A stretch of 64,000 bases of DNA, from assembly GCA_963797555.1 (NCBI GenBank), contig CAWCPV010000008.1:32001-96000 (forward strand), in the 5' to 3' direction. This document shows positions 8,697-53,246 of the stretch, in pieces; within the stretch, counting starts at the first letter, position 1, and every line of letters begins with the position of its first letter. The translations under genes were made by a program, and so were the position numbers. The notes beneath the pieces were generated by a model that ran no database searches, was not told the origin of the DNA, and worked only from the letters and a program-made list of their open reading frames with translations. The stretch is from an uncultured Gammaproteobacteria bacterium. Its GTDB lineage: Bacteria > Pseudomonadota > Gammaproteobacteria > CAWCPV01.

Positions 8697-10174
8697 CGTC
8701 GGAAGTGGCAGCGAGAGTCTCGGAAACGCTCCAGCGTTGGGAGCCGGTCATCGGCCTGGAAATACACGCCCAGCTCTCCACGGTGAGCAAGCTGTTCTCG
8801 GCGGCGCCGACGGCCTACGGTGCGCCCCCCAACACGCAGGCCTGCGGTATCGACTTGGGGTTGCCGGGGGTGCTGCCGGTCCTCAACCGGGAGGCCGTGC
8901 GCATGGCGGTGAAGTTCGGGCTCGCCATCGCCGGGGAGATCGCGTGCCGCTCCGTGTTCGCGCGCAAGAACTACTTCTATCCGGACCTCCCCAAGGGCTA
9001 CCAGATCAGCCAGTACGAGCTGCCGCTCGTCTTGCACGGCTATGTGGACATCGAGGGCGATGACGGGCGCACCAAGCGCATCGGTGTCACCCGGGTGCAC
9101 ATGGAGGAGGACGCCGGCAAGTCGGTGCACGACGTCTTCCACGGCCTCACGGGCATCGATCTGAACCGGGCCGGCACCCCGCTCATCGAGATCGTGTCCG
9201 AGCCGGATCTGAGGTCGGCCCGAGAGGCGGTGGCCTACATGAAAAAGGTGCACGCCCTGGTGCGCTACCTGGAGATCTGCGATGGCAACATGCAGGAGGG
9301 CTCGTTCCGGTGCGATGCCAACGTCTCCGTGCGGCGCAAGGGCGATCGGCACTTCGGGACGCGCACCGAGCTGAAGAATCTGAACTCCTTCCGGTTCGTG
9401 GAGCGTGCCATCAACTACGAGATCGAGCGGCAGATCGACGTGCTGGAGGGCGGTGGGAGCGTGGTGCAGGAGACGCGTCTCTACGATGCCGACAGGAACG
9501 AGACGCGGCCCATGCGCTCCAAGGAGGAAGCGCACGACTACCGCTACTTCCCCGAGCCCGATTTGCTGCCTCTGGTGCTCAGCGAAGCGGTCATCGAGGA
9601 GGCGCGAAACGAGCTGCCGGAGCTGCCGGACGCCAAGCGCGAGCGTTTCGAGACCGAGTACGCCCTGAGCGGCTACGATGCGGGTGTGCTGACGGCGACC
9701 CGTGACATGGCGGACTACTTCGAGGCGACGGTGCGGGGCTGCGCAGACGCCAAGCTCGCGGCCAACTGGGTGATGGGCGATCTCTCTGGGGCACTGAACA
9801 AGTCCGCTGTGGAGATCGCCGACAGCCCGGTGAGCCCGGCGCAGCTCGCGGGGCTGCTGGGTCGTATCCTGGACGGCACGATCTCGGGCAAGATCGCCAA
9901 GCAGGTATTCGAATCCATGTGGGCCGGTGAAGGGGACGCCGACGCCGTCATCGAGCGCGAGGGGTTGCGCCAGATCACCGACACGAGCGCCATCGACCGG
10001 GTCATCGAGCAGGTGATCGCCCAGTTCCCGACCCAGACGGCGCAGTACCGCGGCGGCCAGGAGAAGCTGCTGGGCTTCTTCGTGGGTCAGGTCATGAAGG
10101 CCACGGCCGGCAAGGCCAACCCCCAGCAGGTGAATGCCGTGCTCAAGGAAAAGCTGGCCGGCCCCAGGGGTTGA
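8690..10174 (+). CDS. gatB: Asp/Glu-tRNA amidotransferase subunit B
   Basis: [36 protein letters not shown]. Confidence 0.97.
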
Positions 10175-10289
10175 ACCGGCCACCCTTGTGCCGAGAACCG
10201 CTCCCCGCTCGGGGGGAACGGGGCAAACGCGCTCCGCGTCGGCGCAGTGAAGCCGCCGAGACCGTCCCGGACCCGCTCTGCCCGCCGGG

Positions 10290-11151
10290 GTGCGCATGGC
10301 ATCCCTAGCCGATCGCCTGAAGCTCTCCGCCCGCGCCCTGCTGGATCCGGGTTGGCTCGATCAGTGGCCGCGCCTCGTGAGACCGGCCCAGTTCCTGCTC
10401 GTCAGCCTGCTTGCCTACGAAGTCGCGAACCTCACCCTGCTCATCGTGGGCCCCCACTCTCTGGACGCGCCCTCCAAGGCGACCGTCCCGGTTCACTCTC
10501 GAAACGCCGGGCTGAGCGCCGAGGAGCTGCGTTATCTCCTGGCCCAGGACCCGTTCGCCGGTGCCGCGGGTGCGGGGAAGACCACGACGTTCTGCAGCTC
10601 CTGCGGGCAGGAGCCGGCTGCGGGTCGAGCTGATGGGCACCTCCGTGGGGGAAGAGCCGGACAGCTATGCCATTCTGTTGGTGCCCGAGCTGAAGCCGCA
10701 GGAGGAGGTCTATCGCCTCGGCGAGCAGCTCACGCCAGGCGTGTCCCTGCGGCGCATCGAACGCGACCGGGTGGTGCTGCTCGACCACGAACAGGAACAG
10801 ACGGTCATGCTCGAAGAGCGGGGCTCGGCGGCTCCGGGACAGGGGACGCCGGCGCGCACGCTTTCCAGGGCGCAGGTGAACGCCCAGAAGCAGGACCCCG
10901 CCCGATTCATCCGCAGCATCGAGCTGCAGCCGGCTGCCCAGGGGCTGCAGGTGACGCGTCTGCAGCAAGGCAGTCTTCTGCAGCGCGCCGGCCTCGCCCA
11001 GGGCGACGTGATCTTGGCGGTGAACGGGCAGCCCGTCAGATCGATGGGGGACTTGGCGGCTGTCTATGGAGGCATGGAAGAGGCCAGCGACATCGAGGTC
11101 CAGGTCCTGCGCGGCGGTGCGGCGATGACCCTGTCGGTGGCGATCCGCTGA
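10290..11151 (+). CDS. GspC/PilP-like type II secretion protein with C-terminal PDZ domain, frameshifted near 10590
   Basis: N-terminal TM, ELMGT..G..YAIL..VYRLGE..I..DRVVL, PDZ GLAQGDVILAVNG; two frames. Confidence 0.65.
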
Positions 11152-11212
11152 GAGCTTAGTGCCGGATAGGCCAGTTGCTATACTGAGCCTTGGCCACTCC
11201 AGGGAGGCAGCT

Positions 11213-11410
11213 ATGAGCAAAGTGGAGGCACTGGAAGAGGAGGTGCGCAAGCTCTCGACTGAGGATCTGGCCACATTTCGCCAATGGTTTCAGGCGTTCG
11301 ACGCCGAAGCGTGGGATCGCCAGATTGAGGCCGACGCGCTTGCAGGCAAGCTTGATGCGCTCGCGGGAGAGGCGTTGAGGGACTATCAGGCTGGGACCAC
11401 GTCGCTTTGA
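11213..11410 (+). CDS. Putative antitoxin (addiction module component)
   Basis: 65 aa acidic protein (WDRQIEAD...GKLD), GGGAGG RBS, overlaps ParE-like gene. Confidence 0.75.
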   Translation: MSKVEALEEEVRKLSTEDLATFRQWFQAFDAEAWDRQIEADALAGKLDALAGEALRDYQAGTTSL

Positions 11411-11657
11411 ATCATCACGCTTCGCCGGCCTTCTGGGTCTGTTATCGCGCCCTGCCGCCAGCGGTGCGCGAACGGGGTGACAAAAACTTCTCCCTGCTCA
11501 AGCAAGACCCCTACCTCGCTGCATTTTTAAGCGCATGGGCGTTATTTCTCGGTGCGCGTAGGTCGGCAGTACCGAGCCTTTGGGGCTTGAGGTGCCCGAT
11601 GGGGTGCTGTGATTCTGGATAGGGAGTCATGCGGATTACGATAAGCTCGTGGGGTAA
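11407..11657 (+). pseudogene. ParE/RelE-like toxin with several frameshifts
   Basis: HHASPAFW..Y..LP, SLHFK, SVRVG..YRA, FWIGSHADYDKL recoverable across frames. Confidence 0.75.
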
Positions 11658-11693
11658 CAATTGCTTGCCGCCGAAGGGGAGGCGGCGTTAATG
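11652..11693 (+). other. Short, degenerate attC-like site
   Basis: GGGTAAC overlapping the toxin stop ... GCCGCC/GGCGGC hairpin ... GTTAATG. Confidence 0.45.
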
Positions 11694-11994
11694 TTCCCGC
11701 CCGGGAGGCGTGACCGACGCGATTCGAGCGAAACTGGGGGGGGTGGAGCGGGGCGCTCTGTGAGCGGTTCTTCAATCCGGTCCTGGAGAAGCTCACCCTA
11801 CGTTCCGAGCAAGCCAGCGGTTAGCCTCGGTGGCTGCAGGTCCGGCTCGCCGCGGCCCCCTATCTCGCCGACCTCGAACCGCTCCGTGAGGGTGATGATT
11901 CGTTTGCCGCGGCGTGTGCCGGCCGAGGGCACCCCCGCGTCCTCGCGCGGTGCTGGGCGCCGTTCTGACGGGAGCACGCCCGGACGCGGCGCGT

Positions 11995-12365
11995 TGCCCT
12001 TGACACGCACCGTGTGTGCTGTGCAAGCTTGTCCCTACGGCGCTGGTCCGCCCCCTGGCGGTGATGCCTCGGTGGGGAGAGCCGAGGTCCGGGCAGTAGG
12101 TAGCAGAAGGTGGCGGAGAAGACCACCGGGAGGTGTCATGGGAGGCAACGCCACAATTCCGATCTGCCCATTAGGTCGGAACCCTCCGCGCCGCGGCAGG
12201 GATTACAAAGGCGCGGCGTCCGGCTCCGAGGTCTCCAGTGCGGGTCGGCCGCACCTTGTCCGCCTTTCCCCGGCGAGAAGTCTCTGCACCACGATCCGGC
12301 CTCGTAGGTTCACGGCATCTAAGGCCTTGTCTTGGCGCAGACTCACGGGCTTCCACGGCGTCCGA
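11995..12365 (+). repeat. ~370 bp promoter/leader module, copy 1
   Basis: Colinear with 13305-13662; TTGACA at 12000; GGAGGTGTC-ATG at 12138. Confidence 0.85.
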
Positions 12366-12413
12366 ACCGAGCACGGTCCGCGGGGTGGGCGTGCGGGATA
12401 GGCTGCATTAAGC

Positions 12414-12854
12414 ATGACCGATGTCCGTAGAGCTGATCCGGCTGCTCGACGACGAGCGGTTCTCTTTGTCGCCGTCGCAATAGTTGTCGGAACGCTTCTG
12501 ATTGTTGGCCTCGAGCGATATCGCGACCCACTCCGCGATTGGGTCCTCGCGGAACCAGCGACATCAGCGGAGCGAATCAGCTTGATACTTCTACTTGTCG
12601 CCGCGCTCTTGCTAGCGCCGCTACTTGGGTTCGCGGCCTATCTTTGGTCGCTCGGCGGAAGGATTCTCCGAGCGAAAGAGTTTCCACCGCCGGAGCTTCA
12701 CGTTATTCGCGATACTCAGGTCATCACCGGCGAAGCGGCGGTATCCCGGGGACGGCATCTCAGAATGCTGGCGGTTGGCTGTGGCGTTGCTAGCATTGCG
12801 TTAGGTTTTCTGCTCTGGCGCCTGGCGTCAATGTTTAACGACCATGCAGCCTAA
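12414..12854 (+). CDS. Hypothetical membrane protein (gene cassette)
   Basis: 146 aa, 3 TM segments; stop inside GCCTAAC. Confidence 0.8.
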   Translation: MTDVRRADPAARRRAVLFVAVAIVVGTLLIVGLERYRDPLRDWVLAEPATSAERISLILLLVAALLLAPLLGFAAYLWSLGGRILRAKEFPPPELHVIRDTQVITGEAAVSRGRHLRMLAVGCGVASIALGFLLWRLASMFNDHAA

Positions 12855-12945
12855 CCCCGTGCTAAACACGGCGCGCAGGGCGCGGGCCACGCCCGATCCC
12901 TGCGCGCTGGCGGACTCTCCATCTTGGAAGGGCTCTACGCTAGAG
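12849..12945 (+). other. attC-like site
   Basis: GCCTAAC ... CGCGCAGGG/CCCTGCGCG stem ... GCTCTAC-GCTAGAG (mutated R'). Confidence 0.6.
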
Positions 12946-12963
12946 GTCACCGCTTTGTTGACA

Positions 12964-13017
12964 ACTAGCGGGGCAGATCGTCCGCCGGCGGATGCTAACA
13001 AGCGAGAACTGACCCCA
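12964..13017 (+). mobile_element. Internally deleted RAYT-like 3' end remnant
   Basis: Shares ACTAGCGGGG and GATGCTAACAAGCGAGAACTGACCCC-type sequence with the reverse complement of 47476-47750. Confidence 0.6.
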
Positions 13018-13025
13018 ATGTCGCA

Positions 13026-13197
13026 CTACTTGGGTTCGCGGCCTATCTTTGGTCGCTCGGCGGAAGGATTCTCCGAGCGAAAGAGTTTCCACCGCCGGAG
13101 CTTCACGTTATTCGCGATACTCAGGTCATCACCGGCGAAGCGGCGGTATCCCGGGGACGGCATCTCAGAATGCTGACGGTTGGCTGTGGCGTTGCTA
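13026..13197 (+). repeat. 172 bp duplicate of 12621-12792
   Basis: One mismatch seen; flanked on both sides by TGACCCCAAYGTCGCA. Confidence 0.95.
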
Positions 13198-13304
13198 TGG
13201 GTGACCCCAACGTCGCAGGCCCCAACGTCGCACCGTGCACCAGGGGGGCATCGCATGCACGTCGGGTGGGCAGCGGTGTGGTCCGCCGTCTCCAACGCCG
13301 GCGC

Positions 13305-13662
13305 GGGCCTTGACAGACGCCGCGTGCGCTGTGCAATCTTGTCTCCACGGCGCCGGCTGGCCCCCTGGCGGTGAGCCTCGGTGGGGAGCGGGTCGAGGTA
13401 GTACGCAGTGCAGAAGGTGGCAGAGAAGACCATCGAGGAGGTGTCATGGGAGGCAAGACCGCAATTCGAAGCTGTCCGTCAGACCTGGGCGCTCCGCGCC
13501 GCGGCCGGGATTACGAAGGCGCGCCATCCGGCTCCGGGGTCTCCCGTACGAATAGACCGACCCTGTCCGCCTTTCCCCGGCGAGAAGGCTCTTCACCGCG
13601 ACCCAGCCTCGACCGTTCACGGTGTGTACGTCCTTGTTTTAGCGGAGACTCACGGGCGTCCG
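13305..13662 (+). repeat. ~370 bp promoter/leader module, copy 2
   Basis: TTGACA at 13310; GGAGGTGTC-ATG at 13446; followed by TATACTCGCTCTTAGGC. Confidence 0.85.
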
Positions 13663-13697
13663 TATACTCGCTCTTAGGCGTTCCGAAAGGCTTGGTT

Positions 13698-14323
13698 ATG
13701 AGTTTATTTGGATTTTTGAGCAGGAAGAAACGAGTCTCTGGCACCATTGCCTACTTCGGCTTAGAAGACTGGTGGTTCTCGGCATTCTCCGAGCATGAGC
13801 GCCGATACATCCAACAGAGGTTCCAGCCGTTAGGTTCCTCTGGCAACTCCGTAACTTCCGGTGACATTAGCTATACAAGCCAATCTGTTGGCAGCTTTCT
13901 TAGCGCCTTGGCCGGGTGGTTTGGCAAGAAGGAAGATAGGCCCATTGCATATAGGATTCTAGAGAAAGCTGAAGAACTGTCTAAGACCGAGAGTCAAATT
14001 CTTGATATTCATTTCCTATATGGAGAGCAACTTGCACTCTATTACAAGGACAGAGATAATCCGACGTTCTAGAAAAAGCTATTGAGGCATGCAAACGACA
14101 GATATCACTCGCTGACGCGGCAGCGAGTGCATTCCAAGCCGAGTATAAGGGCGATGCCTTGCCTAGTCACAAGGGGTATGAACAGTTGTCCATCATCTTG
14201 GAAAAGCAGATGAAGTTCGTCGAGACAATCGAGTTATGTACCCAAGCTGCGAAGCAAGGATGGGCTGGGGATTGGGAGAAAAGAATAGAACGTTGTAGCA
14301 AGAAGATAATGAAGAACGCATAA
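13698..14323 (+). CDS. Hypothetical protein (gene cassette), frameshift near 14070
   Basis: Low-GC ORF continuing as LEKAIEACKRQI...PSHKGYEQL...WEKRIERC in a second frame. Confidence 0.7.
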
Positions 14324-14759
14324 TGGTGAATCGTTAGGTCGTAAACTGCAGGATATTTTGCGAAGGACGACCTACTGATTCATCGCGGTGCTGAAATCAA
14401 TTCAAAGGAGACGAAAATGTCAAGAAACGAAGATGCGATGATGCACCTAAGCTGGGCAAGGCAGGCAGAAAAACGAGGAGATTTTTTAGCCGCCAGGATA
14501 GAGTATCTTAAATGTGTAGAGTCTTGGAAACAGGCTGGTGACAATGTGGAGTTAGAAAAAGCGACGAAGGAATATGAAGCGTTCGTAAGACGAGACCCCA
14601 TATTTGAGAAACTCATCTCCGTATTATTACCAATGATTCAGGCCGACCCGGGCGTTTTGCAATCCGACATCGCCAAACAAGCCGAGTCCATGGATTGGGC
14701 AGCGCTTTATAGTTACAACCGGCCGGTAGCAAGGGAAGATATCTATTACGCTCTTTAAT

Positions 14760-16285
14760 GGCTCTTTCCGGAATCGTGTGGGTAGCAATGGCTATGGCGT
14801 GGGGGCATCTGCCTGATCTCCGACACCAGCGGGTGTGTTGAACGGCGAGGCGGGCAGGTGGGCCAGGTTGCCGGCGATGAGGTAGGCGATGGTGATGAGC
14901 GAGTGCGTGGTGCGGTAGCCCCGGGCGCGAGCCTTGGCGGCCTGGATGAGGGAGTTGATGCCCTCGGCGCGGCCGTTGGTGAGGCCCGAGTGGAACGCAG
15001 CGAGCACGCCGTCCCAATGCTCTTTCAGGGTAGTGGCGAGGCGTTTCATGGGCTGCAGGCGGCTACGCCGTGCCCAGCTATACCAGCGCCCGAGGGCGCT
15101 CTCGGCCTGCTCGAGGGTGCTGGCCGTGGCGTAGATATCGCGCAGCGCCTCCTTGAGGCGCCAGGCACGGGCGGTCTGGAGGCGGCGCGGGAGAGCCAGT
15201 GGAAGTCGGTGAGCTGGTCCCAGGTCCAGTCGTGGGCGTCTTTGAGCCAGGTCCAACGGGTGCCTCTGAGGGCGGGCTCGGTCTTGATCTCCTGGCGGCG
15301 CACCGCATCGACCGCCTCGTTGGCGAGCTTGATCACATGGAAGGCATCGAAGCTCACCGTGGCCTGGGGCAGGTGCCTGGCCACCCCGGCGCGGTAGGCG
15401 CCGGACAGGTCGATGCACACCTGCTCGATGGCCTGCGGGTCGCCGCCGTGCGCCTTGAGGTCGGCGGCGAAGGCCGCCACGGTGCTCTGGTCGCGGCCCT
15501 CGCAGGCGAACAGCAGGCGTTTTCCCGTGAGGTCATGGAACAGGCTGATGTAGTGCTGTTCACGCCGGGCAGCGGTCTCGTCCAGACCGATGGCGCGCAC
15601 CTGGGAGTGGTCCTCCTGATCGCGGGCCCTGCCCACGTAGTGCTTGAGTACCGCCCACAGGCGCTCATCGCCCACGCCCAGGTGCCGAGCCACGGTCGCC
15701 ACCGGCATGGCCTGGCACAGCGTGACCACCAGCGCCTCCATCAGCGCCGTGAAGCCACTCTGTGCGCGCGCCCACGGCGCTTCGACCTGGGTCGTCTTGC
15801 CGCAGGCCTCGCAGCGCAATCGCGGCAGATGCGCGTGCAGGTACGCCCGTGACTTAAAGAAGCTCAGGTGCTGCCAACTGCGCTCCCGGGTGTCGTGCAC
15901 CGGCTGGCCTTGCGCTCCGCAGGCCGGGCAGGCAAAGCGGCTGCCCTTGGCAAACGCCACATCGAGGTCGATGCGCCCAGCCTCGGGGTCGAACCGCACG
16001 TCGGTGACCTCCCAAGGCACCGTCAGGCCCAGTGCCGTGGTAAACAGATGCGTGGGCTGCACGGTGCTCCCCCCTTGGATGACGGCCTGTGGATTTGTGG
16101 ACGAGTCCTGCGGAGCGGCCCGCGTCCCAAGGACCGTGTGGACAACCTCCCGGTTGCCCACACTCGCGGGCCTCTCGCCCACAACCCCACAAGCCCACAA
16201 GCCCAACCACAAGATGTTGTGATAAGCGACCAGTCAGGGCAAATGCTACTTCACCACCGCGACCCACACAATTTCCGAAAGAGCC
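14760..16285 (-). mobile_element. ISL3-family insertion sequence
   Basis: IRs GGCTCTTTCCGGAATCGTGTGGGT / ACCCACACAATTTCCGAAAGAGCC; 8 bp target duplication TCTTTAAT/TCTTTATT. Confidence 0.92.
14792..16062 (-). CDS. ISL3 transposase, frameshift near 15185
   Basis: Zn finger CPACG, IGLDET, FDAFHVI, TNGRAEGINS..KARARGYR. Confidence 0.9.
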
Positions 16286-16373
16286 TCTTTATTTCGCTGA
16301 CAAGTTCGGCAGAATCACAAGGACCAAGAAAGGGCGGTCTTATGAAGTACGAATCGCCGGTTAACTACCGACG

Positions 16374-16466
16374 GCCTAAGCCGGTGTTGGAGGCGGGCGC
16401 GGGGAGACGGCACCATGTTTCCTATTATGGCCGGGACCGAGCTGCTAAAACGGCTTAGCGTTAGGC
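16374..16466 (+). other. attC-like site
   Basis: GCCTAAGCCG ... CGGCTTAGC-GTTAGGC. Confidence 0.65.
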
Positions 16467-16488
16467 ATTCCGCGATGGTCGTGGAAAG

Positions 16489-17190
16489 ATGAAAACGCGG
16501 CTCAGAATTCCAAAGATAGTTGAGAAACGTGTATTCCAGGAGGTAGGATCTCGCTGCCCTTTCTGCTCAGAGACCGAGGTTGCCTCTCTGGAAATCCACC
16601 ACATTGATACTGATCCCGCAAATAACCGTTTCGAGAATCTCCTTCTCGTGTGCGCGACATGCCACTCAAAGATAACTGCCGGGATTATCTCTGAGGCAGA
16701 TGTCCAATGGACGAAACGTCATTTCAAAACGCCACTGCAGTCTATTCGCCGCAGCGCTGAGCCTTCCGTGGCGGTGTCAATCTCCCACTCCGAGTTCCGC
16801 GGCGATATAGCTCACACCATCAACAAGATCGCGGCGCCACGTCCTCTACGGATACGACATCCCGAAGGTTCGTTAGGTGCCGACTTGAAGAAAAGAGGTT
16901 ACATTGATTATTTGATTACTCAATACTTTTCGTTCCGAAAAGCTGGCGTTTCGTACGGGGACGTTCGAGCGTTTTCATATGCTGAACTTCATAGGACGAT
17001 TCAAAAGAGGTTCGGGTACAAGACGTTTTTCATGCCTGTAGAGCTATTTTCTTCCCTTGTGAAATTTCTACAACACCGTATTGACCAGACTATTCTCGGA
17101 AAACATCGCCGCAGTGAAGGACAAACAAATTACCACTCGTATGCGGAGCATGTTGAAAAGCATGAGCAAAAGAATGAGGGAGACGCGTAA
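16489..17190 (+). CDS. HNH endonuclease domain protein (gene cassette)
   Basis: CPFC, EIHHI, N..NLLLVCATCH; low GC; stop inside GCGTAAC. Confidence 0.85.
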   Translation: MKTRLRIPKIVEKRVFQEVGSRCPFCSETEVASLEIHHIDTDPANNRFENLLLVCATCHSKITAGIISEADVQWTKRHFKTPLQSIRRSAEPSVAVSISHSEFRGDIAHTINKIAAPRPLRIRHPEGSLGADLKKRGYIDYLITQYFSFRKAGVSYGDVRAFSYAELHRTIQKRFGYKTFFMPVELFSSLVKFLQHRIDQTILGKHRRSEGQTNYHSYAEHVEKHEQKNEGDA

Positions 17191-17270
17191 CCATCGCCGC
17201 GGCCGGCGAGCGGTTCTGAGAGTATCCGGAGGGTCACGGTTGGGCCGCGGTGGCTGAGGGGCAACGTTAT
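17185..17270 (+). other. attC-like site
   Basis: GCGTAAC ... CCGCGGCC/GGCCGCGG ... CAAC-GTTAT. Confidence 0.6.
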
Positions 17271-17408
17271 CGCGCTGGGCAAAGCTCGGCGCCTCTTGCA
17301 GGGTGAAAGTCCCTGTCGGGAAAGGGCTAGCCACCCACCCGTATCGAGTCTTGGGTCCATGGCGGAGCGGCCGATAGGCCGCGAACAAGATGGGCTAAGC
17401 GTAGACAG
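17270..17408 (+). mobile_element. 5' fragment (domain I) of a group II intron
   Basis: CGCGCTGGGCAAAGCTCGGCG, CAGGGTGAAAGTCCCTG, GCTAGCCACCCACCCGTATCGAG, AAGCGTAGACAG; no RT ORF or domain V. Confidence 0.7.
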
Positions 17409-17443
17409 TGGCAGTTAATGGGGTCGTTAATGGGGTCAGACTC

Positions 17444-18948
17444 TAATGGCACTTACTTAACCTTTTTCGGATGTCCGTTCTCGCGGATTTCTTCCCGTAC
17501 GAGCTGTCTTGGCTTGCAGAGCAGCGGAAACGGTTTGGGTCGGCGTTTGACCGCTCTTGGCTCGACGCGCCGGGGGCGTTTCCCGACCCGCTGCTCGGCG
17601 ATCATCACGAGTAAGGCAGACAGAGTGACGGGGTCCTGCGCCCCGCCACGTTGCTGCCACACTGTCCAGATCTGGACGGTATGCTTGAAGCTGAGCTGGC
17701 GCGGGGTCTGATCGGCCAGCCAGGCGGCCTGGGCCATCAGCAACCGGATCAGATTGTAGGCCAGCAGATGAACCCAGACCTCTTTGATCGCCATCTCCGG
17801 GGTCTTGCAGCTCAGCATCTCCATGCCGAGCGTGGTCTTGATGTGGCGTAAGTCCAGCTCCACGTGCCAGCGCCGGCGATACAGCGTCTTGAGGGCGGGC
17901 TTCGGAGTGTGCCTGGGGCAGCAGAGCGTGGTGACCAGGGTCTTGCGGCCGGTGTGTAGCTCGCGCACCTGCAGGCTCTCGGGGGCTTGCTCGTAGTCGG
18001 CCTGGCGCATCCAGTCGGGCTTCTTGGGCTTGTGCAGCACGATGAGGTGGTCGCGCTCGCCGAGCTTCTCGCCCACAGAGAAGTCGATGCTGCGTCGCCG
18101 TGCCCCGTACTGTTCGAATACTCCGTCCACGCCCCGTTGCACCAGCTCGGAGAGCAGGAAATAGGTCGCGTAGAAGGCATCCCCCAAGAGGATGTCACCG
18201 GGGCGCAGGGTATCGAGCTGGGAGCGCAGCAGAGTCTGTTCATCGCTTCCCTTGCCTTGGCACGGGCCCGTGGCCACATCGAGCAACCCGCCACTGCCCA
18301 GGCACAGCAAAGCGACCAGGCGGCACTGGGGAAAACCCAGGCCCGCCTTCTGGCTGGCCGGTTGCGGATAGGCCGCTTGATTCTCCGGTGTATCCGGCAG
18401 CACCACCGTCGCCCCATCGACCAGACGCACCGGGCGACCCTGCCAGTGCCACATCGCCGGGGCACCCTCGGTGATTAGCCGCCCGGTGTGGCGGCACAGC
18501 CGCGTGACCATCTGAAGCGGCAGGCGCTGTCGTGCCTTGCAGTACGCCCCGGTGTGGGTACTGCATCGCGGCAGGCCGCCCACCAGGCGCTTGACCGCAG
18601 CATCATTCACCGCTTGCTGGCAGGAGCGGTCCGCCGAGAGCGTCTGCGCAAGAAACATCGACAGCGTCTCGGTGGGTGCAAACAGCCGCTCACGGTGCTC
18701 CGGCAGCAGCGACTCGACTTGCTCGAACAAGCGCGGGCCGGTGAGCAGGTTGAAAAACGCGTAGGAATCCGTGTTGGCAGCCTGATGACGAACCCGTCGC
18801 TGTTGCTGAACGCAGGCGCAGTGGCTAGGATGCATGAGGGCTGGCTCCCTGGGTGATGGACGTTGTGTTTGGCGACTCAACAGCCTATCACCTACGCCAG
18901 CCCTTCTGCATGCAAATTCAGTCAGTTGCGCTTAAGTAAGTGCCATTC
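17444..18948 (-). mobile_element. IS4-family insertion sequence
   Basis: 16 bp IR AATGGCACTTACTTAA; 11 bp target duplication GGGTCAGACTC; empty site preserved near 19822. Confidence 0.93.
17453..18835 (-). CDS. IS4-family DDE transposase
   Basis: LVDG, LGDAFY, Y..RW.VE...R.IK (YREK). Confidence 0.92.
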   Translation of the reverse strand: MHPSHCACVQQQRRVRHQAANTDSYAFFNLLTGPRLFEQVESLLPEHRERLFAPTETLSMFLAQTLSADRSCQQAVNDAAVKRLVGGLPRCSTHTGAYCKARQRLPLQMVTRLCRHTGRLITEGAPAMWHWQGRPVRLVDGATVVLPDTPENQAAYPQPASQKAGLGFPQCRLVALLCLGSGGLLDVATGPCQGKGSDEQTLLRSQLDTLRPGDILLGDAFYATYFLLSELVQRGVDGVFEQYGARRRSIDFSVGEKLGERDHLIVLHKPKKPDWMRQADYEQAPESLQVRELHTGRKTLVTTLCCPRHTPKPALKTLYRRRWHVELDLRHIKTTLGMEMLSCKTPEMAIKEVWVHLLAYNLIRLLMAQAAWLADQTPRQLSFKHTVQIWTVWQQRGGAQDPVTLSALLVMIAEQRVGKRPRRVEPRAVKRRPKPFPLLCKPRQLVREEIRENGHPKKVK

Positions 18949-20360
18949 GGGTCAGACTCCATTGAGTGCGCGGTGAACTGCATTTCTCCGGCGAGCTGAC
19001 ACACTTGCCGAGCCACCAGGCTTTGCCCACCTGCTCACCGAGTTGCGCTCCCATGGACTGGTGGGCTACTCCAAGCCCCCGTTCGCCGCTCCCGAGCAGG
19101 TGCTGGCCCACAGGCTTCAGGCGGGCCTTGCTCATCAGCTCCTTCCCCAGGAGCCCAATCAGCTCCTCCAGGGTCTGAATCATCGCCAGACTGCTGTCCG
19201 CCGCCACCGCCTGAAGCTCATCGAAGAGCTTCTACGGCGACTGAAATCGAGCCGCTTGATCTTGTCGCCGCTCAGCCGTCGCCGTGTGCACGTGCGAGCA
19301 GATTCTGCCACATGGAGCGCGGATGGTGGCGAAGCCACGGTGCCTCTATTGAATCGATGCAGGGGTGGGTACTGGCGAGCAGCCCGCTGATGGCGCGCCT
19401 AGTCGCCTGGCACGCTGAACCGGGCGCAGGATCGGCTAGCGCGGAGTCGGTGCAGGCGACGTTGCTGTGGATACGGCTGTTGCTCCCCACGCCAAAAGCC
19501 ACCGGACCCTACGGTGTCATGGCGTACGACCACCGCCCCACGCGGCCATCGACCGCTGCCCGCAAGCCGGCTACGGCCCCCTGTAGTCCTCGCCCAATCT
19601 GCCGCTGCGGGCTACCTCTGCCATAGTGCAGTGCGGGGGAGACCACACAGACCGAGACCGGAGAAGGCGGTTTAGTCGCGAACGACATGAGACCACCCGG
19701 CACCAGCAGCGTGCCCGAAGCCAGTACGAACCATCCATGTGGGCGAGGCATGGGGAGGTCCGCCGGAGTCCTCAGGCCGTGGCATGCAGGAAGAGAGGCG
19801 TCAGAGAACCCAGTGGCAGTTAATGGGGTCAGACTCCATTGAGTGCGCGGTGAGCTGCACTTCTCCGGCGAGCTGACACACTTGCCGAGCCACCAGGCTT
19901 TGCCCACCTGCTCACCGAGCTGCGCTCCCATGGCTGGTCTACTCCTAGCCCCGTTGCCGCTCCCGAGCAGGTGTTGGCTTACCTCGGCGCTATGCCCACC
20001 GCGTCGCCATCAGCAATGAGCGGCTCCTCGATTCTCAGACGGCACCGACCGCTTGGCACGCCGCCGGGCGACCTTGCGCATTCCCGGCACCGACAGCAGG
20101 GGCTTCAAGGCAGGCTTCAGGCTCATCAGTTCCTTCCCCAGGAGCCCAATCAGCTCCTCCAGGGTCTGAATCACCGCCAGACCACTGTCCGCCGCCACCG
20201 CCTGAAGCTCATCGAAGAGCTTCTACGGCGACTGAGTCGAGCCGCTTGATCTTGTCGCCGCTCAGCCGTTGCCGGTGCGAGCAGAGTCTGCACATCGAGC
20301 ACGGGGGTGGTGGCGAAGCCACGGCGCCTACCATTGGATCTATGCAGGGGCGGGTACTGC
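18949..20360. repeat. Two diverged copies (18949-19380, 19822-20360) of a mosaic of IS91-like (+) and IS110-like (-) transposase fragments
   Basis: W.GYSKPPFAAPEQVLAYLG.YAHRVAISNERL (Y2 transposase); reverse strand LSGDKIKRL..IQTLEELI..LLSVPG (IS110-like). Confidence 0.75.
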
Positions 20361-47094: not shown

Positions 47095-47189
47095 CAGGGA
47101 TCACCTGCCAAATGGTACTTCAGAATAGCGCCCCGGACTTGACGAACTTGGTAAGGCTTCGCCACAGATGATGGCTTCGGCGTATGCGT

Positions 47190-47420
47190 GGCTCAGCCAT
47201 CGTGGCAGTCGGGCGGCCCGATACTCGCGCCGCGCCTCGACAATCGCCTCATCGCACGCTTCCCTCGCCACGACGCCCGGCCGCTTGAATCCCAGCTCCT
47301 GCGCGAGAGCGGCGGCGCGTTCGCTTACCACGACGAGTCGGGTGGCCCGCAGCCATTGCTGGCCGAGCTTTCCGACATGTCGAACAGGTTGCGCAGTCCC
47401 TCGTTGCTGGTCACGACGAC
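47190..47420 (-). repeat. Diverged duplicate of the hemD 3' end and downstream flank
   Basis: [31 protein letters not shown] matches 51535-51762. Confidence 0.92.
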
Positions 47421-47423
47421 CAT

Positions 47424-47484
47424 TGACGTTGCTGGGGTCAGTGACGTTGCTGTGACGTTGCTGGAGTGACGTTGCTGGGGTCAG
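47424..47484. repeat. TGACGTTGCTG x4 micro-repeat with two GGGGTCAG motifs
   Basis: Copies at 47424, 47442, 47453, 47467. Confidence 0.9.
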
Positions 47485-47750
47485 TTCCCGCTTGCTAGCA
47501 TTCGCCTGCGGACGGTCCGCCCGACGGTAGCCGGGTGGACGTCGAAGTGCTGGGCGATCTCTCGATAGCTGTAGGCTTCGGTGGAATGGGCGGCGATCAT
47601 CCCCTTCATCCGGCGCTCTGGACGTTGCCGCGGTGGACACCAACGAGGCGGGTGGGGCACGCCTTTGGACACGGGGAATGCTCAGCTCATCGCCCTGAAC
47701 CAGCGCCTTGGCCTGCATGCGCTCGACAAGCCGCTCATCCCCGCTAGTTA
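47476..47750 (-). mobile_element. 3' remnant of RAYT-like (Y1 HUH) transposase with HTH
   Basis: GDERLVERMQ..ELSIPRVQRR; YSYREIAQHFDVHPATVGR; ends GAACTGACCCC; partial copies at 48355-48430 and 50198-50311. Confidence 0.65.
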
Positions 47751-47770
47751 GCCGCTTCACAGGTAGCTCA

Positions 47771-48081
47771 CTACAGCCCTGGCCCGGAGCCGCGACTGGT
47801 GTGCCACAATGCGAGGATCTCCACCCTATCAGGCGATCCCCTTGACCGGTAATGGAGGTAGTGGTGAACACGGCTGAGATGGATACGTCGCACGCCCGAT
47901 AGCTTAACATTCTTGGCCTTGGCCCCAATTTGCGGCTGGGTAGAGATAAGCTCAAAGGCGCGCTCGATGTCCTCACGGAACACACCGGCGCCTTCGGACG
48001 ATTCGCCTCCCACCATGCAGAGGCTTCCGCCATCTGAGCCGCCGCAGTGCGGACGACGCGGAGGGGAAGCTTCCGGCTCAA
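47771..48081 (-). pseudogene. RelE/ParE-family toxin (frameshifted)
   Basis: AQMAEASAWW..NRPKAP..F..., GVRRIHL.RVHHYLHYR, ILALWHTSR. Confidence 0.8.
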
Positions 48082-48299
48082 GCGTGGTCTCGTAACTCGT
48101 TCAGCAATTGCTCGCCAGTAATGTCTTCGCCGCGGTCAGCTTCAGCCATCGCCGCAAGCAGTGCTGCCTCGGCTTCTGAATCGAGCACAAACGTCTCATC
48201 CCGCTCCGGTGCCAGCACGGTGACGGTGGCGCCCTCTTCCAGAGGCTCACCCTCAGTGACTATCTTGCCAGCGATCACTTTGCCTGTAGTGACTTTCAT
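48078..48299 (-). CDS. Putative antitoxin
   Basis: 73 aa acidic protein overlapping the toxin start. Confidence 0.75.
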   Translation of the reverse strand: MKVTTGKVIAGKIVTEGEPLEEGATVTVLAPERDETFVLDSEAEAALLAAMAEADRGEDITGEQLLNELRDHA

Positions 48300-48536
48300 A
48301 TCTGTATCCTAATGCACCGAGAGACCGGAATCCAGCGGCGGCCTAATAAGTGGGCTGGGGTCAGTTCCCGCTCGCTAGCATTCGCCCGGGACGATTCGTC
48401 CGACGGTCGCCATCCAGGAGATCTTCCGCCGATACGGCCCCGCCTATCGGGAGCGCTTCGGCCAGGCGATGTCCGCCGAGCACCAAAAGGTTATCGAGGA
48501 TTGAAACGACCTTTCAGGTCGCCTTGTCCTTACTCG

Positions 48537-48857
48537 TTAGGTACTAACCCGGACAAGCTGGCCCGGAGCGATGCGAGAGAGCACCTGCAGAAGCTCCGGA
48601 ACCAAGGGGAGCAGGGTTTCGATGCGGTTGTTCATTGCGATGAGCACCACTACAGGGATGAGCAGGCGAGCGGGATTCTGCTGATATTCAAGGTTCTGAT
48701 CTCCAGTGACCAGCACATCAAACTGTCCACTGGCTCGGCGAAGAAGTTCGCCGTTCTTCAGGCCGGCCCAACCCATCTGCGGCACCGTGCGCACTTCATG
48801 GCCCGTAAGCGCGTGACCCAACTTGCGGGGCAGCGACTCATCAAGCAGGATGCGCAT
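48537..48857 (-). CDS. DUF5615 PIN-like toxin
   Basis: MRILLDESLP, GWAGLKNGELL, TGDQNL.YQQN; stop inside ACCTAAC. Confidence 0.88.
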   Translation of the reverse strand: MRILLDESLPRKLGHALTGHEVRTVPQMGWAGLKNGELLRRASGQFDVLVTGDQNLEYQQNPARLLIPVVVLIAMNNRIETLLPLVPELLQVLSRIAPGQLVRVST

Positions 48858-49065
48858 CCGCGTTCAAAGCTTCGCGCGCCAGTTCAAGGGCCGTAATGGC
48901 CTGCTCGCGGCTCACCGAAGGGAACTCGTCTAAGAACACTTCAAGGCTGTCGCCAGCCTCCAGATAGTCGAATAGGATCTTGACAGGGACACGCGTACCG
49001 ACGAATACAGGCGTGCCGCCGAGGATTTCCGGGTCGCGGTGCACGACCAATTCCCGATCAAGCAT
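48841..49065 (-). CDS. DUF433 antitoxin
   Basis: DPEILGGTPVFVGTRVPV...FLDEFP. Confidence 0.92.
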   Translation of the reverse strand: MLDRELVVHRDPEILGGTPVFVGTRVPVKILFDYLEAGDSLEVFLDEFPSVSREQAITALELAREALNADAHPA

Positions 49066-49222
49066 GGTGAGCTCCGTGGTTTAGCCCTTCAATGGTACTG
49101 CAATGCTTCGGCGGGCACCTAGCGCGGAGGTGTGCCGCGCCGGCCACGGAAACAACAGAAAACATTAGAAAACAGGGTGCGCTGGTACCCGGCGTCGGCA
49201 TGAACGATGCGTTGCGCATCGC

Positions 49223-50026
49223 CTACTTCGGGACCGTTGCTCGAACTGCCCAAGCCCGGGCGACTAAGGACACCGAACCGTCCGCTTGCACTGGAACGCG
49301 CTGTCGTATGCGCTCGCGCAGGCGCGCTCGCGCTGCCTCATCGAGGGCCATGGCATACGCCGGAGCGGGCCCCTGCCCGCCCAGGAACGGGCGCCAGTAG
49401 TCTTCGAAGCTCGCGAAGGGCGTCGCTATGTCGACCGCAGTCACCTCGACCCTATGCAGTCCAGAGCTGTCGAAGAGCTCGGTGAGCACCTCCGGACGAC
49501 TTACGGGAAACCGAACTCCTTCGTCCACCCTCGACGCCTCCGGGTCGAGTTCAACCGCCGCATCCCAGAACAGGCGCATGAGATCCATCTTCCCTGCATA
49601 ATCCCATACGTAGGCCCCGATTGTGCCGCCGTTGGCCGTCACTCGCGACATCTCGACAAGTGCCGCGCGTTCATCCGGGACGAAGTTCAAGACCAGTCCC
49701 GAAACCGTCACGTCGACAGACGAACTGTCCAGCGGGATTGCCGCCACAGTGCCTCGATGGAGCACCACTTGGCCTGCAAGGTGCTCTTTAGCCTTGTCGA
49801 GAAAACCCTCCGAAGGCTCGACGCCGACCACCGAGGCAGGCGAACAGTGGTCCACAATGGCTGCGCATAGCGCTCCCGTACCACATCCGACATCCAGCCA
49901 GCGCCGGCCGGCAGGAATGCTTAACCATGAGAGAAACCGAGGCGCGACCTGACGGCTCCACCGGCCCATCTACTGCTCGTAAGGGTCCCCACGTTCCCAG
50001 GTGTCCGACACGTGACTCTGTGCCAT
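49223..50026 (-). CDS. Class I SAM methyltransferase; in-frame TAG at 49970-49972
   Basis: YEQ*MGRWS, WLDVGCGTG, YVWDYAG; GTTGGGC upstream. Confidence 0.85.
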
Positions 50027-50073
50027 GATTCTCTCTACCTGTGATTCGACGCCCAACAGGAAATGGGCGGAAG

Positions 50074-50187
50074 ATCCGCCGCCTCATCACACGGCGAGGT
50101 GAAGGCGTGCCGCCGCTTTTTGAATGAAATCATGCGCGTGAGCGAGCGTGTCAAAGGTTGCTGCGGTGCTGGGCTGCAGTAGCCCGA
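50074..50187 (-). repeat. ~115 bp promoter-bearing repeat (second copy 51391-51504)
   Basis: Minus-strand TTGACA at 50149-50154 and 51466-51471 followed by CATGAT. Confidence 0.85.
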
Positions 50188-50310
50188 GAGAGCGGCGCTG
50201 GGGTCAGTTACCGCTTGCTAGCATTCGCCTGCGCCTGCGGAGGGTCCGCCCGACGGTAGCCGGGTGGACGTCGAAGTGCTGGGCGATCTCTCGATAGCTG
50301 TAGGCTTCGG

Positions 50311-50577
50311 TTCCGGCTCAAACGCGGTCTCGTAACTCGCTCAGCAATTGCTCGCCAGTAATGACTTCGCCGCGGTCAGCTTCAGCCATCGCCGCAAGCA
50401 GTGCTGCCTCGGCTTCTGAATCGAGCACAAACGTCTCATCCCGCTCCGGTGCCAGCACGGTGACGGTGGCGCCCTCTTCCAGAGGCTCACCCTCAGTGAC
50501 TATCTTGCCAGCGTCACTTTGCCTGTAGTGACTTTCATATCTGTATCCTACTGTACCGAGAGACCGGAATCCAGCGT
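50311..50577 (-). pseudogene. Near-identical second copy of the 48078 antitoxin (1 bp deletion)
   Basis: Matches 48071-48337. Confidence 0.9.
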
Positions 50578-50594
50578 CGGCTGGAGTGCTTCGT

Positions 50595-50908
50595 GTACGC
50601 CCGACATGGGCATGGACTGATGGGGTGAGAGTCCCCTGTACGAGTACCTGGGAGGTTCACCTTGTGGACCCAAGCAACCACTAGCCGACGGCAAGGGCGG
50701 CCTCGCGAGGGGCTGTGCGGAGGAAGCCCGACCGGGATGACCAACGACCGGCTGCAACGCCAGGGCTTGATATCGGTACGCGCTTTGTGGCTCCGCGCCC
50801 ATGGCTATCCCTGAGGTCCTCGTGTGCTCCGCTTTTGTGAACCGCCCGGTGCGGACCTGCATGCCGTGGTGGTGTGGGGGCTGGGGGCTAAACATCCCCG
50901 TACCCGAT
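50595..50908 (+). mobile_element. ORF-less, internally deleted group IIC-attC intron
   Basis: 5' GTACGCCCGACATGGGC...GGGGTGAGAGTCCCC; domain V GAACCGCCCGGTGCGGACCTGCATGCCG; ends ACCCGAT; removal restores GCATAAC. Confidence 0.88.
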
Positions 50909-51120
50909 TATGCATACATTAGCCGACCTCGGGGTTCTGGAACCGGGCGACCCAGCTCACGAGCAGTTTCGATCCATTGCTCAATCACATGTTGCGCATT
51001 GGCCACCGCTTGCTCGTAGGTCTCCCCGTCCGCCATACATCCGGATAGTTCTGGAACCTCGACCAAGAAGGACTGGTCCTCTTCGCTCCAGTAGACGACT
51101 AACTCATATTTAATCAACAC
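50908..51120 (-). CDS. hicB: HicB antitoxin
   Basis: YWSEED..VEVPELSGCMADG..WIETARELGRPVPEP. Confidence 0.9.
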   Translation of the reverse strand: MLIKYELVVYWSEEDQSFLVEVPELSGCMADGETYEQAVANAQHVIEQWIETARELGRPVPEPRGRLMYA

Positions 51121-51370
51121 CGCTTTCTCCCAATCGGTACTTCACGAGTATGGTCCTGACTTGTTTGATCTGGTACGCCTTCGCCTTACGGCCTTTAGGC
51201 TGCAAATTGATGATCTCATCGACGCCATCCCGGGTGAAAATGTGATGGCCACCCTTCACCCGTTCGTCAAAGCCAAGGCGGATCAGCAACTGGCACAGCG
51301 CAGAGAACTCTATGTTTCCGTCGGCGCTTCCGGTCAGAATTTTTTCCCTGAGCTTTGAGTACTTTCCCAT
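51110..51370 (-). CDS. hicA: HicA toxin
   Basis: LGFDERVKGGHHIF, INLQP, AKAYQIKQVR. Confidence 0.88.
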   Translation of the reverse strand: MGKYSKLREKILTGSADGNIEFSALCQLLIRLGFDERVKGGHHIFTRDGVDEIINLQPKGRKAKAYQIKQVRTILVKYRLGESGVD

Positions 51371-51562
51371 TCAGCAATGCCTATTCGCTACATCCGGCGC
51401 CTTCTGATGCAGGCGGCGAGGTGTAAGCGTGCTTTTTGAATGAGATCATGCGCGTGGGCGAGCGGTGTCAAAGTTGCTGCGGTGCTAGGCTGCAGTAGCC
51501 CGAGGGGAGGAGCGATTCGGCGGCGACACGGCGGCTCAGCGATCATGGCAGTCGTCGGCCCG

Positions 51563-52321
51563 TCATTCGCGTAGCGCCTCGACAATCGCCTCATCGCTCG
51601 CCTCCCGCGTCACGACGGCCGGCCGCTTGAAGCCCAGGTCCTGCGCGAGAGCGGCGGCGCGCTCGCTCACCACGACGAGCCGGGTGTTTCGCAGCCATTG
51701 CTGGCCGAGTTTTCCCACCATGTCGAACAGATTGCGCAGGCCCTCGTTGCTGGTCACGACGACGGACTGGATCTCGCCCCGCGCCCAGTGGCGCAGCAGC
51801 TCGCCCACGTCGGCCTTCGGCTGCACGCGCCGGTAGACTTCGGCGTACTCGACGACGGCGCCGCGCTCCGCGAGGGTATCGGCGAGGAGCTCCCGGCCCC
51901 CCTCGCCGCGGAAGATGACGATATGTTTGCCGGCCACTTCCTGCATGGCGGGCAGCTCCAGCAGGGCCTCGCTGTTGAAGCGGCCCGCGGGACAGAGATC
52001 GGCCTCGAGTCCCATGCGTTCCAGCTCGCGGGCGGAGCCTTTGCCGACGGTGGCGAGCTTCAGGTGCGGCGGCAGGCGGCGGCGCGCCAGGATGCCGTTC
52101 AGCGCCCTGGCTACGGCGTTCGGGCTGATGAAGACGGCGATGTCGAAGTCGTCGAGGCGGTCGACGAGGGCGTGGAAGGGCGACAAATCCTCCGGGTCGA
52201 CGATCTCCAGGACCGCGAAGCAGATGGGCCGCCCGCCTTCTGCGCGGATAAGGGCGCAGAGGTGCTCCGCCTGGTGGGCGGGGCGGGTGACCAGCACCCC
52301 GACCTTATCCAGAGCCCCCAT
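51563..52321 (-). CDS. hemD: Uroporphyrinogen-III synthase
   Basis: VLVTRP, FISPNAV, SEALL, RGEGGRE, VYRR. Confidence 0.94.
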
Positions 52322-53246
52322 GCGCTTCGTAGAGGGCCTGCAGGATCTCCCCGGCGCCCATAGCGAGCAGCTCCTCGGCCACATGCGCTCCCAACGCTGC
52401 GGCCTGCTCCGGACTTTCCCCCGCCTGCGCGCAGAGAACCCGCCGGCCATCGGGGGAGCCCACCATGGCGCGCAGCCGCAGCCGGCCTTCGATCACCTCG
52501 GCGTAGGCCGCCACGGGGACCTGGCAGCCACCGTGCAGCCGCGTATTGAGCGCACGCTCGGCGGCCACGCAGGTATGGGTGAGGGGGTCGTCCAACGGGG
52601 CGATCAGTGCCTGGGTGGACGCGTCGTCGGCTCGGCACTCGATTCCGATGGCGCCCTGGCCGATGGCCGGGATGCTGACCTCGGTGCTGAGAAAGTCGGT
52701 GATTCGCTGCTCCAGCCCCAACCGCTTCAGGCCCGCGCAGGCCAGGATGAGGGCGTCGAACTCCCCGGCGTCGAGCTTGGCGAGCCGCGTGTTCACGTTG
52801 CCTCGCAGGGTCGAGATTAGCAATGCGGGGAAGCGGGCCCGGATCTGGCACTCGCGCCGCAGGCTGGAGGTCCCGATGCGCGCTCCCGCCGGGAGGGCGT
52901 CCAGGCTGGGGTAACGGTTGGAGACGAAAGCGTCGCGCGGGTCCGCACGCGTCAGGATGACGGGGAGCGCCAAGCCCTCCGGCAGCTCCACCGGCACGTC
53001 CTTCATGGAGTGGACCGCGATGTCCGCGCGGCCCTCGAGCATGCCCTGCTCCAGCTCCTTGACGAACAGCCCTTTCCCGCCCACTTTGGCCAGTGGGGCG
53101 TCGAGCAGCTTGTCGCCCTGGGTCGTCATGACGACCAGCTCGACTTCGAGGCCGGGGTGCAGGTCGATGAGCCGAGCGCGCACATGCTCGGCCTGCCACA
53201 GGGCGAGCGGACTCTTGCGGGTGGCAATGCGCACGAGACTGGACAC
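52305..53246 (-). CDS. hemC: Hydroxymethylbilane synthase
   Basis: [38 protein letters not shown]. Confidence 0.97.

Follow-up and report, generated by a model that had tools for sequence, protein, structure and literature searches.

The DNA added at 13026-13232 of the window (the whole stretch of 64,000 nt that was analysed) is explained, with moderate confidence, by a duplication anchored at the terminus of a mobile element, which we infer to proceed through HUH nicking, re-synthesis and strand transfer at the solo right end of a TIRtron. The best explanation of the sequences compared is that the right-end terminus is a hot spot for the tandem addition of DNA ending at this terminus, in units ranging from 11-30 nt to 108, ~200 and 435 nt. 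At the locus, the added block of 192 nt consists of a 172-nt piece of the neighbouring gene ORF146, the filler TGGG and the element tip with 9 nt, and is followed by a 15-nt unit. This block looks like a further such addition, one that extends 405 nt inward and passes over 217 nt on the way. The locus is laid out as follows, offsets being counted from the T of TGACCC.

11991-12354, + strand: leader-like element A, copy 1, before ORF146; ~80% identical to 13301-13661
12414-12854, + strand: ORF146, a 146-aa open frame for a small predicted membrane protein; gene of origin for the copied piece
12621-12792, + strand: source segment, codons 70-126 of ORF146; reference copy of repeat family D1
12966-13012, + strand: 3' remnant of the gene for a TIRYT (RAYT-like Y1 transposase), final 13 codons and TGA stop (12971-13012)
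12994-13016, + strand: right terminal inverted repeat, whose reverse complement begins GGGGTCAGTTCTC; fits the TIRYT motif GGGGWSAS
13010-13025, + strand: terminal unit 1, TGACCCCAATGTCGCA; repeat tip and 9 outer bases, ending at +16
13026-13197, + strand: copy of 12621-12792; first base directly after the element terminus 13025|13026
13198-13201, + strand: TGGG filler between the copy and terminal unit 2
13202-13217, + strand: terminal unit 2, TGACCCCAACGTCGCA; 15/16 bases as in unit 1; repeat family D5
13218-13232, + strand: terminal unit 3, GGCCCCAACGTCGCA; one base short on the 5' side, 14/15 bases as in unit 2
13301-13661, + strand: leader-like element A, copy 2, 68 nt past the last terminal unit

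The segments 12621-12792 and 13026-13197 form a direct repeat with 171 of 172 bases the same (BLAST identity of 99.4% over 172 nt), the sole mismatch being G12771 in the source and A13176 in the copy. A 172-nt repeat at 99% identity is beyond chance; judged from the bases themselves, the duplication is real, and this local event is fairly recent. The initial annotation had described a near-perfect 172-nt copy of 12621-12792 between copies of an end motif that was itself duplicated. Both descriptions were confirmed, with the motifs at 13010-13025, 13202-13217 and 13218-13232, unit 2 being near-identical to unit 1 and unit 3 to unit 2. The motif TGACCCC, between two copies of which the insertion had been placed, does belong to the element end as the tip of the inverted repeat, but the joint sits 9 nt further out, at 13025|13026. 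The 172-nt copy thus begins right after +16 of unit 1, i.e. exactly at the terminus. The 192-nt block again finishes at the element terminus; it spans 405 nt inward, from which 12793-13009 (217 nt) are absent.

The 13-nt core of the end motif, CCCCAAYGTCGCA, occurs three times in the 5.35-Mb genome, always at the 13010-13232 locus, and is therefore not a genome-wide repeat. No source of the TGGG filler was found nearby; it differs both from GCAT after the source and from GAAC before the tip, and its context, TGGGTGACCCC, has just one further genomic occurrence, in an unrelated place. Microhomology was found neither at the two long joints of the locus nor at the joint of the related locus L014.

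The gene of origin has no Pfam match above the curated cut-off. Of 401 genomes of the class, 10 have a homologue, this genome (G000) counted, and no right-end remnants were recognised beside these homologues. Third codon positions account for most of the differences between ORF146 and metagenome contigs about 95% alike (11 of the 21 within the ORF). The 172-nt copy itself is probably without function. The search of sequencing runs returned soil and marsh metagenome contigs only, with at most 0.13 of the sampled words from the locus, and none of these contigs, when placed on 11900-13900, lies over 13039-13239. In one relative, a contig is continuous over 12465-12985 at ~95% identity and diverges after that; the segment may be single-copy in this contig, bearing in mind that contigs show presence and not absence. 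A DNA search of 41 genomes gave G000, one 37-nt match of chance size and nothing else, and scans of genome contigs and of metagenome contigs for the exact right-end pattern gave 0 matches in each. A 14-nt inverted repeat, 12395-12408 / 12844-12857 (GGGATAGGCTGCAT / ATGCAGCCTAACCC), almost exactly encloses ORF146.

TIRtrons have been described as RAYT-like Y1 genes (TIRYTs) bracketed by GGGGWSAS inverted repeats (Di Nocera, De Gregorio and Rocco 2013, PMC3733652). They correspond to subclass 2.1 of TnpA-REP, with an HTH or DnaA_C tail and no REPs, in the accessible text of Quentin et al. (2018, PMC6006769). The element family of the locus shares with them the RAYT-like HUH/Y1 protein, its C-terminal HTH being seen in longer copies, and the GGGGWSAS repeats, represented here by GGGGTCAG, which is the reverse complement of 13009-13016. 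In the frame of a RAYT-like protein tail, the stretch 12966-13017 gives ...GQIVRRRMLTSEN-stop; it has six further genomic copies at 79-89%, the 47-nt end amounting to 7 copies in total. Longer genomic copies translate as ...YSYREIAQHF.VHPATVGR.VRRRMLASxN-stop, a helix-turn-helix tail matching the C-terminus of the protein P0001. In a 63-aa sister remnant (47481-47672), HTH_38 and HTH_23 score at the cut-off; the 13 codons at the locus are only the tail behind the HTH. The database search with the 63-aa remnant gave one longer protein, P0001 (281 aa), having PF01797, an HTH and the same tail and labelled by its source as a REP-associated tyrosine transposase.

Identification of the site as the outer end of an HUH/Y1 element, as the initial annotation had proposed, and more precisely as a TIRtron/TIRYT right end, is supported: the tail matches P0001 (PF01797 + HTH), and the tip fits GGGGWSAS. 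The wording "RAYT-like 3' end" was right as to the tail and has to be narrowed otherwise, this being the 13-codon right end of a TIRtron/TIRYT and not of a REP-associated RAYT. A REP-associated RAYT/REPtron was considered separately and rejected for its low copy number (the 16-nt motif is present three times, always here, and the 47-nt end in 7 copies).

No transposase gene is left at the locus. No GGGTCA, expected of a left end, occurs within 10084-17231, and there is no second TGACCC within 11126-13010. Since the last 13 codons alone survive and the transposase gene is absent, the locus is a solo end and not a TIRtron; published TIRtrons differ in this respect from the 47-nt gene remnant with a right repeat that is present here. 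Solo and clustered copies of TIRtron repeats are known in some genomes (PMC3733652, PMC6006769, accessible text). Two intact TIRYT genes are present in this genome away from the locus, C17:141932 and C17:145790; the left end of the first (C17:141932-142879) carries the identical 13-nt tip.

Related loci were retrieved on the basis of P0001 (32 from metagenomes and 17 from genomes, 49 altogether), including isolates of Imhoffiella, Thiocystis and Thiorhodococcus. In full-length relatives, the gene stands between inverted repeats, the tip is inverted at both ends, and the flanks are stuttered. The left repeat reads GGGGTCAG(G/T)TCT... and lies ~35-50 nt before the ATG (~115 nt in L049); the right repeat reads ...A(A/C)CTGACCC(C) and lies at the stop codon or just past it. 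Comparison of six full-length loci by eye revealed no target-site duplications or flanking direct repeats.

The tip is followed by a short lineage-specific stretch, and tip and stretch are often tandemly repeated with ragged inner ends. This anchoring was measured with the stricter tip CTGACCC, which gave 48 unique ends, a second tip copy being sought within 500 nt. It was present in 17 of the 48, and in 17/17 of these the exact duplicated run stops +12 to +19 from the T of TGACCC; the inner limit of the runs varies from 0 to -59. When mismatches are allowed, the units reach 108 nt (L013/L014), ~200 nt (left end of L049, with the gene start included) and 435 nt (C7:296515-297301). Three pairs of right ends represent near-identical elements with differing flanks.

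L010 / L026: 100% over 722 nt, identity stops at +16
L018 / L036: 99.2% over 888 nt, identity stops at +13
L016 / L030: 99.4% over 628 nt, identity stops at +14

Duplicated runs and the identity of near-identical elements stop at the same point, which is therefore the element terminus. The right end thus extends 7-10 nt past the conserved tip. In the left-end pair L015/L045 (97.3% over 874 nt), identity begins only at the tip itself; judging from this one pair, the two ends would be asymmetric, with the 7-10 extra bases on the right only. Inspection of the joints by eye gave no consistent pattern of a conserved base, the C|T step of TnpA-REP included. The same window contains a second gapped copy ending at a right-end terminus: 50581-50197 corresponds to 48342-47474 with a 488-nt gap, 50581-50311 matching 48342-48071 (97.1%) and 50311-50197 matching 47582-47474 (93%). 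The 435-nt unit of C7:296515-297301 is a tandem duplication at 97.7%, each copy having a TIRtron left end, the first transposase codons and a flank stutter of its own.

The frequency of the stutter was estimated in two ways. Within the 49 loci, 66 tip matches in 39 loci were reduced to 58 unique ends by removing identical contexts. An exact junction repeat of at least 10 nt within 110 nt was found at 20 of the 58 ends versus 45 of 3000 positions drawn at random from these loci; 38 of the 58 ends show no stutter. This genome has 3088 TGACCC sites, of which 90 with intermediate upstream scores were excluded from both classes. A flank repeat of at least 9 nt was found at 7 of 31 TGACCC sites with a repeat-like upstream sequence versus 86 of 2967 other TGACCC sites; two of the 7 positive sites are sister copies and two lie in one array, leaving ~5 independent loci. 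The Fisher p values of 1.5e-20 for the related loci and 3e-5 for this genome are overstated, the related sequences being non-independent. The locus at 13010-13232 itself counts as zero in the genome-wide short-range test because its repeat is 192 nt off. The enrichment of local duplications at this motif, which the initial annotation had put forward for testing, thus holds for element tips in both comparisons and not for TGACCC elsewhere. The isolate genomes L041 and L043 also show stutters, which are consequently not artefacts of metagenome binning. A second repeat subfamily of the genome (...GTGTCTGACCCCATT...) stutters likewise, with up to 5 units (C4:327549-327663), and repeats of the GTGTCTGACCCCATT type border other RAYT-like genes of the genome.

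With the outer limit fixed and the inner one variable, the pattern indicates a site-specific event at the terminus. According to the explanation favoured here, a TIRYT acting in trans would nick single-stranded DNA at the terminus and keep the 5' side as a phosphotyrosine. The released 3'-OH could then be extended or exchanged, and strand transfer would close the product with the gain of one unit. The point where the enzyme cuts and rejoins is probably the stutter spot of the family, to judge by sequence comparison. A related model of nicking, extension and strand transfer, with no long-range template switch, has been published for RAYT/BIME amplification: after a nick, the 3'-OH is extended, and a second cut and strand transfer add a tandem unit (PMC3333891, accessible text). 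In vitro, E. coli TnpA-REP cuts only ssDNA, forms a 5'-phosphotyrosine, chooses its sites loosely and carries out strand transfer (Ton-Hoang et al. 2012, PMC3333891). The present likeness to TnpA-REP, a Y1 enzyme cutting ssDNA beside its recognition sequence, is drawn by analogy from sequence. TnpA-REP differs in recognising REP hairpins and needing a C|T step, whereas the locus has an inverted repeat with no evident hairpin and units that include DNA of a neighbouring gene.

A simple re-copying of the terminus disagrees with the non-contiguous unit, from which 12793-13009 are absent and to which TGGG is added, and with joints having neither microhomology nor a conserved base. The lack of microhomology at both long joints does not favour plain template switching as the route of the templated insertion that the initial annotation had suggested; its other part, that nearby DNA was copied, stands.

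Generic replication slippage or unequal sister-strand recombination would need no transposase: a 405-nt tandem duplication (12621-13025) would be followed by an internal deletion, and slippage would account for the motif repeats. We give this account some weight and hold it unlikely. Duplication followed by deletion does yield the observed order of the parts, in a region pieced together from duplicated segments, IS elements and toxin-antitoxin modules, and such repeats occur at ~1.5-3% of control positions too. It leaves unexplained, however, the exact coincidence of joint and terminus, the outer limit, which stays at +12 to +19 in all 17 of the independent-looking ends although their inner limits vary, and the enrichment at element tips by a factor of 10 to 20; moreover, microhomology is absent from either long joint. 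An assembly artefact, the second copy being absent from the organism, is very unlikely. It would agree with the failure to find a sequencing run with the locus (0.13 of the sampled words at best), but the copies differ by one substitution and the flanking units by T/C, assemblers do not typically produce a partial copy with a gap and a filler, and end duplications of the same type are present in independent assemblies, including those of isolates. Practically no weight is given to a pair templated by a retroelement, i.e. the template and variable repeats of a diversity-generating retroelement. The single difference, A in the intergenic copy versus G in the gene copy, is what such a system would leave; yet there is one difference per 172 nt, the repeat stops short of the 3' end of ORF146, and no reverse transcriptase is encoded nearby, the ORF at 17453-18880 being a DDE transposase and the only retroelement signal of the window a group II intron fragment (17306-17443).

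Two further readings extend the action of the enzyme to larger units. In one-ended HUH capture, which is tentative and improbable, the right-end terminus would be a reusable joining site made by the enzyme, and the stutters, the gene piece and kb-size units would come from one process. Capture would assemble kb-size units of a promoter-leader, toxin-antitoxin or cargo genes and a right-end remnant into integron-like arrays with no integron integrase; the cassette boundaries here are TIRYT right-end remnants and not attC as in an integron. Right-end remnants (47 to ~290 nt) stand behind toxin-antitoxin or cargo genes at 7 places in the genome and also in L014, and promoter-like leaders begin just past right-end termini. 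This pattern would fit the capture of whole cassettes; decayed nested insertions would look similar. One-ended "peel and paste", which we regard as quite improbable, supposes two cuts in ssDNA, one at a loosely defined upstream site and one at the right-end terminus, after which the released piece is circularised and inserted at a resident right-end terminus mimicking the target. It would cover the 172-nt piece and, with the same low probability, the kb-size cassettes between right-end remnants. Every unit does end in a tip with outer bases, the remnants behind cargo genes and the leaders behind termini are arranged as this process would leave them, and for TnpA-REP low cleavage specificity and an excision-integration model have been published (PMC3333891, accessible text). 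On the other hand, the 172-nt piece has no terminal motif at its own end, so that two events or a filler step would be needed, circle junctions and empty sites were not seen, and the arrays are equally explicable as decayed nested insertions. Duplication anchored at the terminus remains the preferred explanation of the locus.

IS200/IS605 elements lack terminal inverted repeats and carry hairpins in subterminal positions. The ends at the present loci are inverted repeats (hairpins were judged by inspection) and hence do not agree with this family, with which they share the Y1 HUH enzyme and, in the six full-length loci compared, the absence of flanking direct repeats. Tandem end copies are not known as a feature of IS200/IS605. 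The members IS608 and ISDra2 move by "peel and paste" with a Y1 HUH enzyme, which cleaves at a distance from the recognised end structure and produces no target duplication (PMC3333891, PMC5027513, accessible text). In IS91/ISCR and Helitrons, also HUH elements, one end is fixed and the other variable, and adjacent DNA or gene fragments are captured (PMC13181058, PMC4778049, accessible text); their enzymes have two tyrosines or a fused helicase, whereas the enzyme considered here has a single tyrosine and no helicase.

In the literature searched, the term TIRYT was found in PMC3733652 and PMC6006769 only, and no report of TIRYT enzyme activity was found. The TIRtron descriptions in the accessible text of these two papers contain no anchored stutter, no outer segment of 7-10 nt and no copy of a neighbouring gene; the words "duplication" and "target site" have 0 occurrences in that of PMC3733652, and "tandem" has 0 in that of PMC6006769. 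The element class is known. Three features are not found in the accessible main text of the literature searched: duplications anchored at the ends, the additional bases outside the right-end tip, and the capture of a piece from a gene next to the element.

TIRYTs form a large subclass of RAYT-like HUH enzymes. The fixed outer limit predicts that a TIRYT cuts the CTGACCC strand 12-19 nt (median 15) to the 3' side of the T of this motif; the right-end strand with the predicted cut reads ...GAGAACTGACCCC. This prediction would turn TIRYT function into a simple question of oligonucleotide cleavage and strand transfer. Should this joint also capture parts of genes and entire cassettes, bacterial islands would have a new way of shuffling genes.

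Leader-like element A (~360-400 nt) forms a family of ~9 copies: besides the two at the locus, there is one at C7:292874-293177 and ~6 more diverged ones (C4, C7, C9, C16). Its features are a TTGACA box, palindromes of the CGGACAATGTCCG type and a conserved GGTGGCGGA..AGACCACC hairpin with GGAGG..ATG behind it. Element A precedes small cargo genes and in one case lies 15 nt behind a TIRtron tip. The search of 11000-15000, including the element A copies, against Rfam gave no match, and RNAalifold with 9 copies of the element gave only a weak consensus (-18 kcal/mol).

An island of the window lies behind hemD (51563-52450). On its minus strand at 47100-52450, a TIRYT right-end remnant stands after each of the HicAB, methyltransferase, DUF433/PIN-like and antitoxin/ParE modules, with tips near 50209, 48366 and 47486. 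Beyond the remnants, a stutter of four units precedes a 232-nt copy of the 3' part of hemD (51763-51533 vs 47420-47190, 88.4%); a further piece of hemD is copied out of order (51910-51793 vs 46879-46760, 78%). A truncated RelE/ParE-like ORF and a small antitoxin-like ORF overlap at 11159-11622, directly behind a T2SS gspC-like gene; neither ORF has a Pfam match. Three direct copies of the second GGGGTCAG-headed repeat, of the type ...GTGTCTGACCCCATT..., occur within 17231-19830 (17433, 18949 and 19826). They surround the gene of the IS4-like DDE transposase (17453-18880, minus strand), with the group II intron fragment at 17306-17443 alongside. In the unrelated loci L035 (~2078) and L044 (~3400), the tip is cut after TGACC and followed by the same foreign sequence (GTATGCCGTAA...), which looks like another mobile element targeting TIRtron tips.
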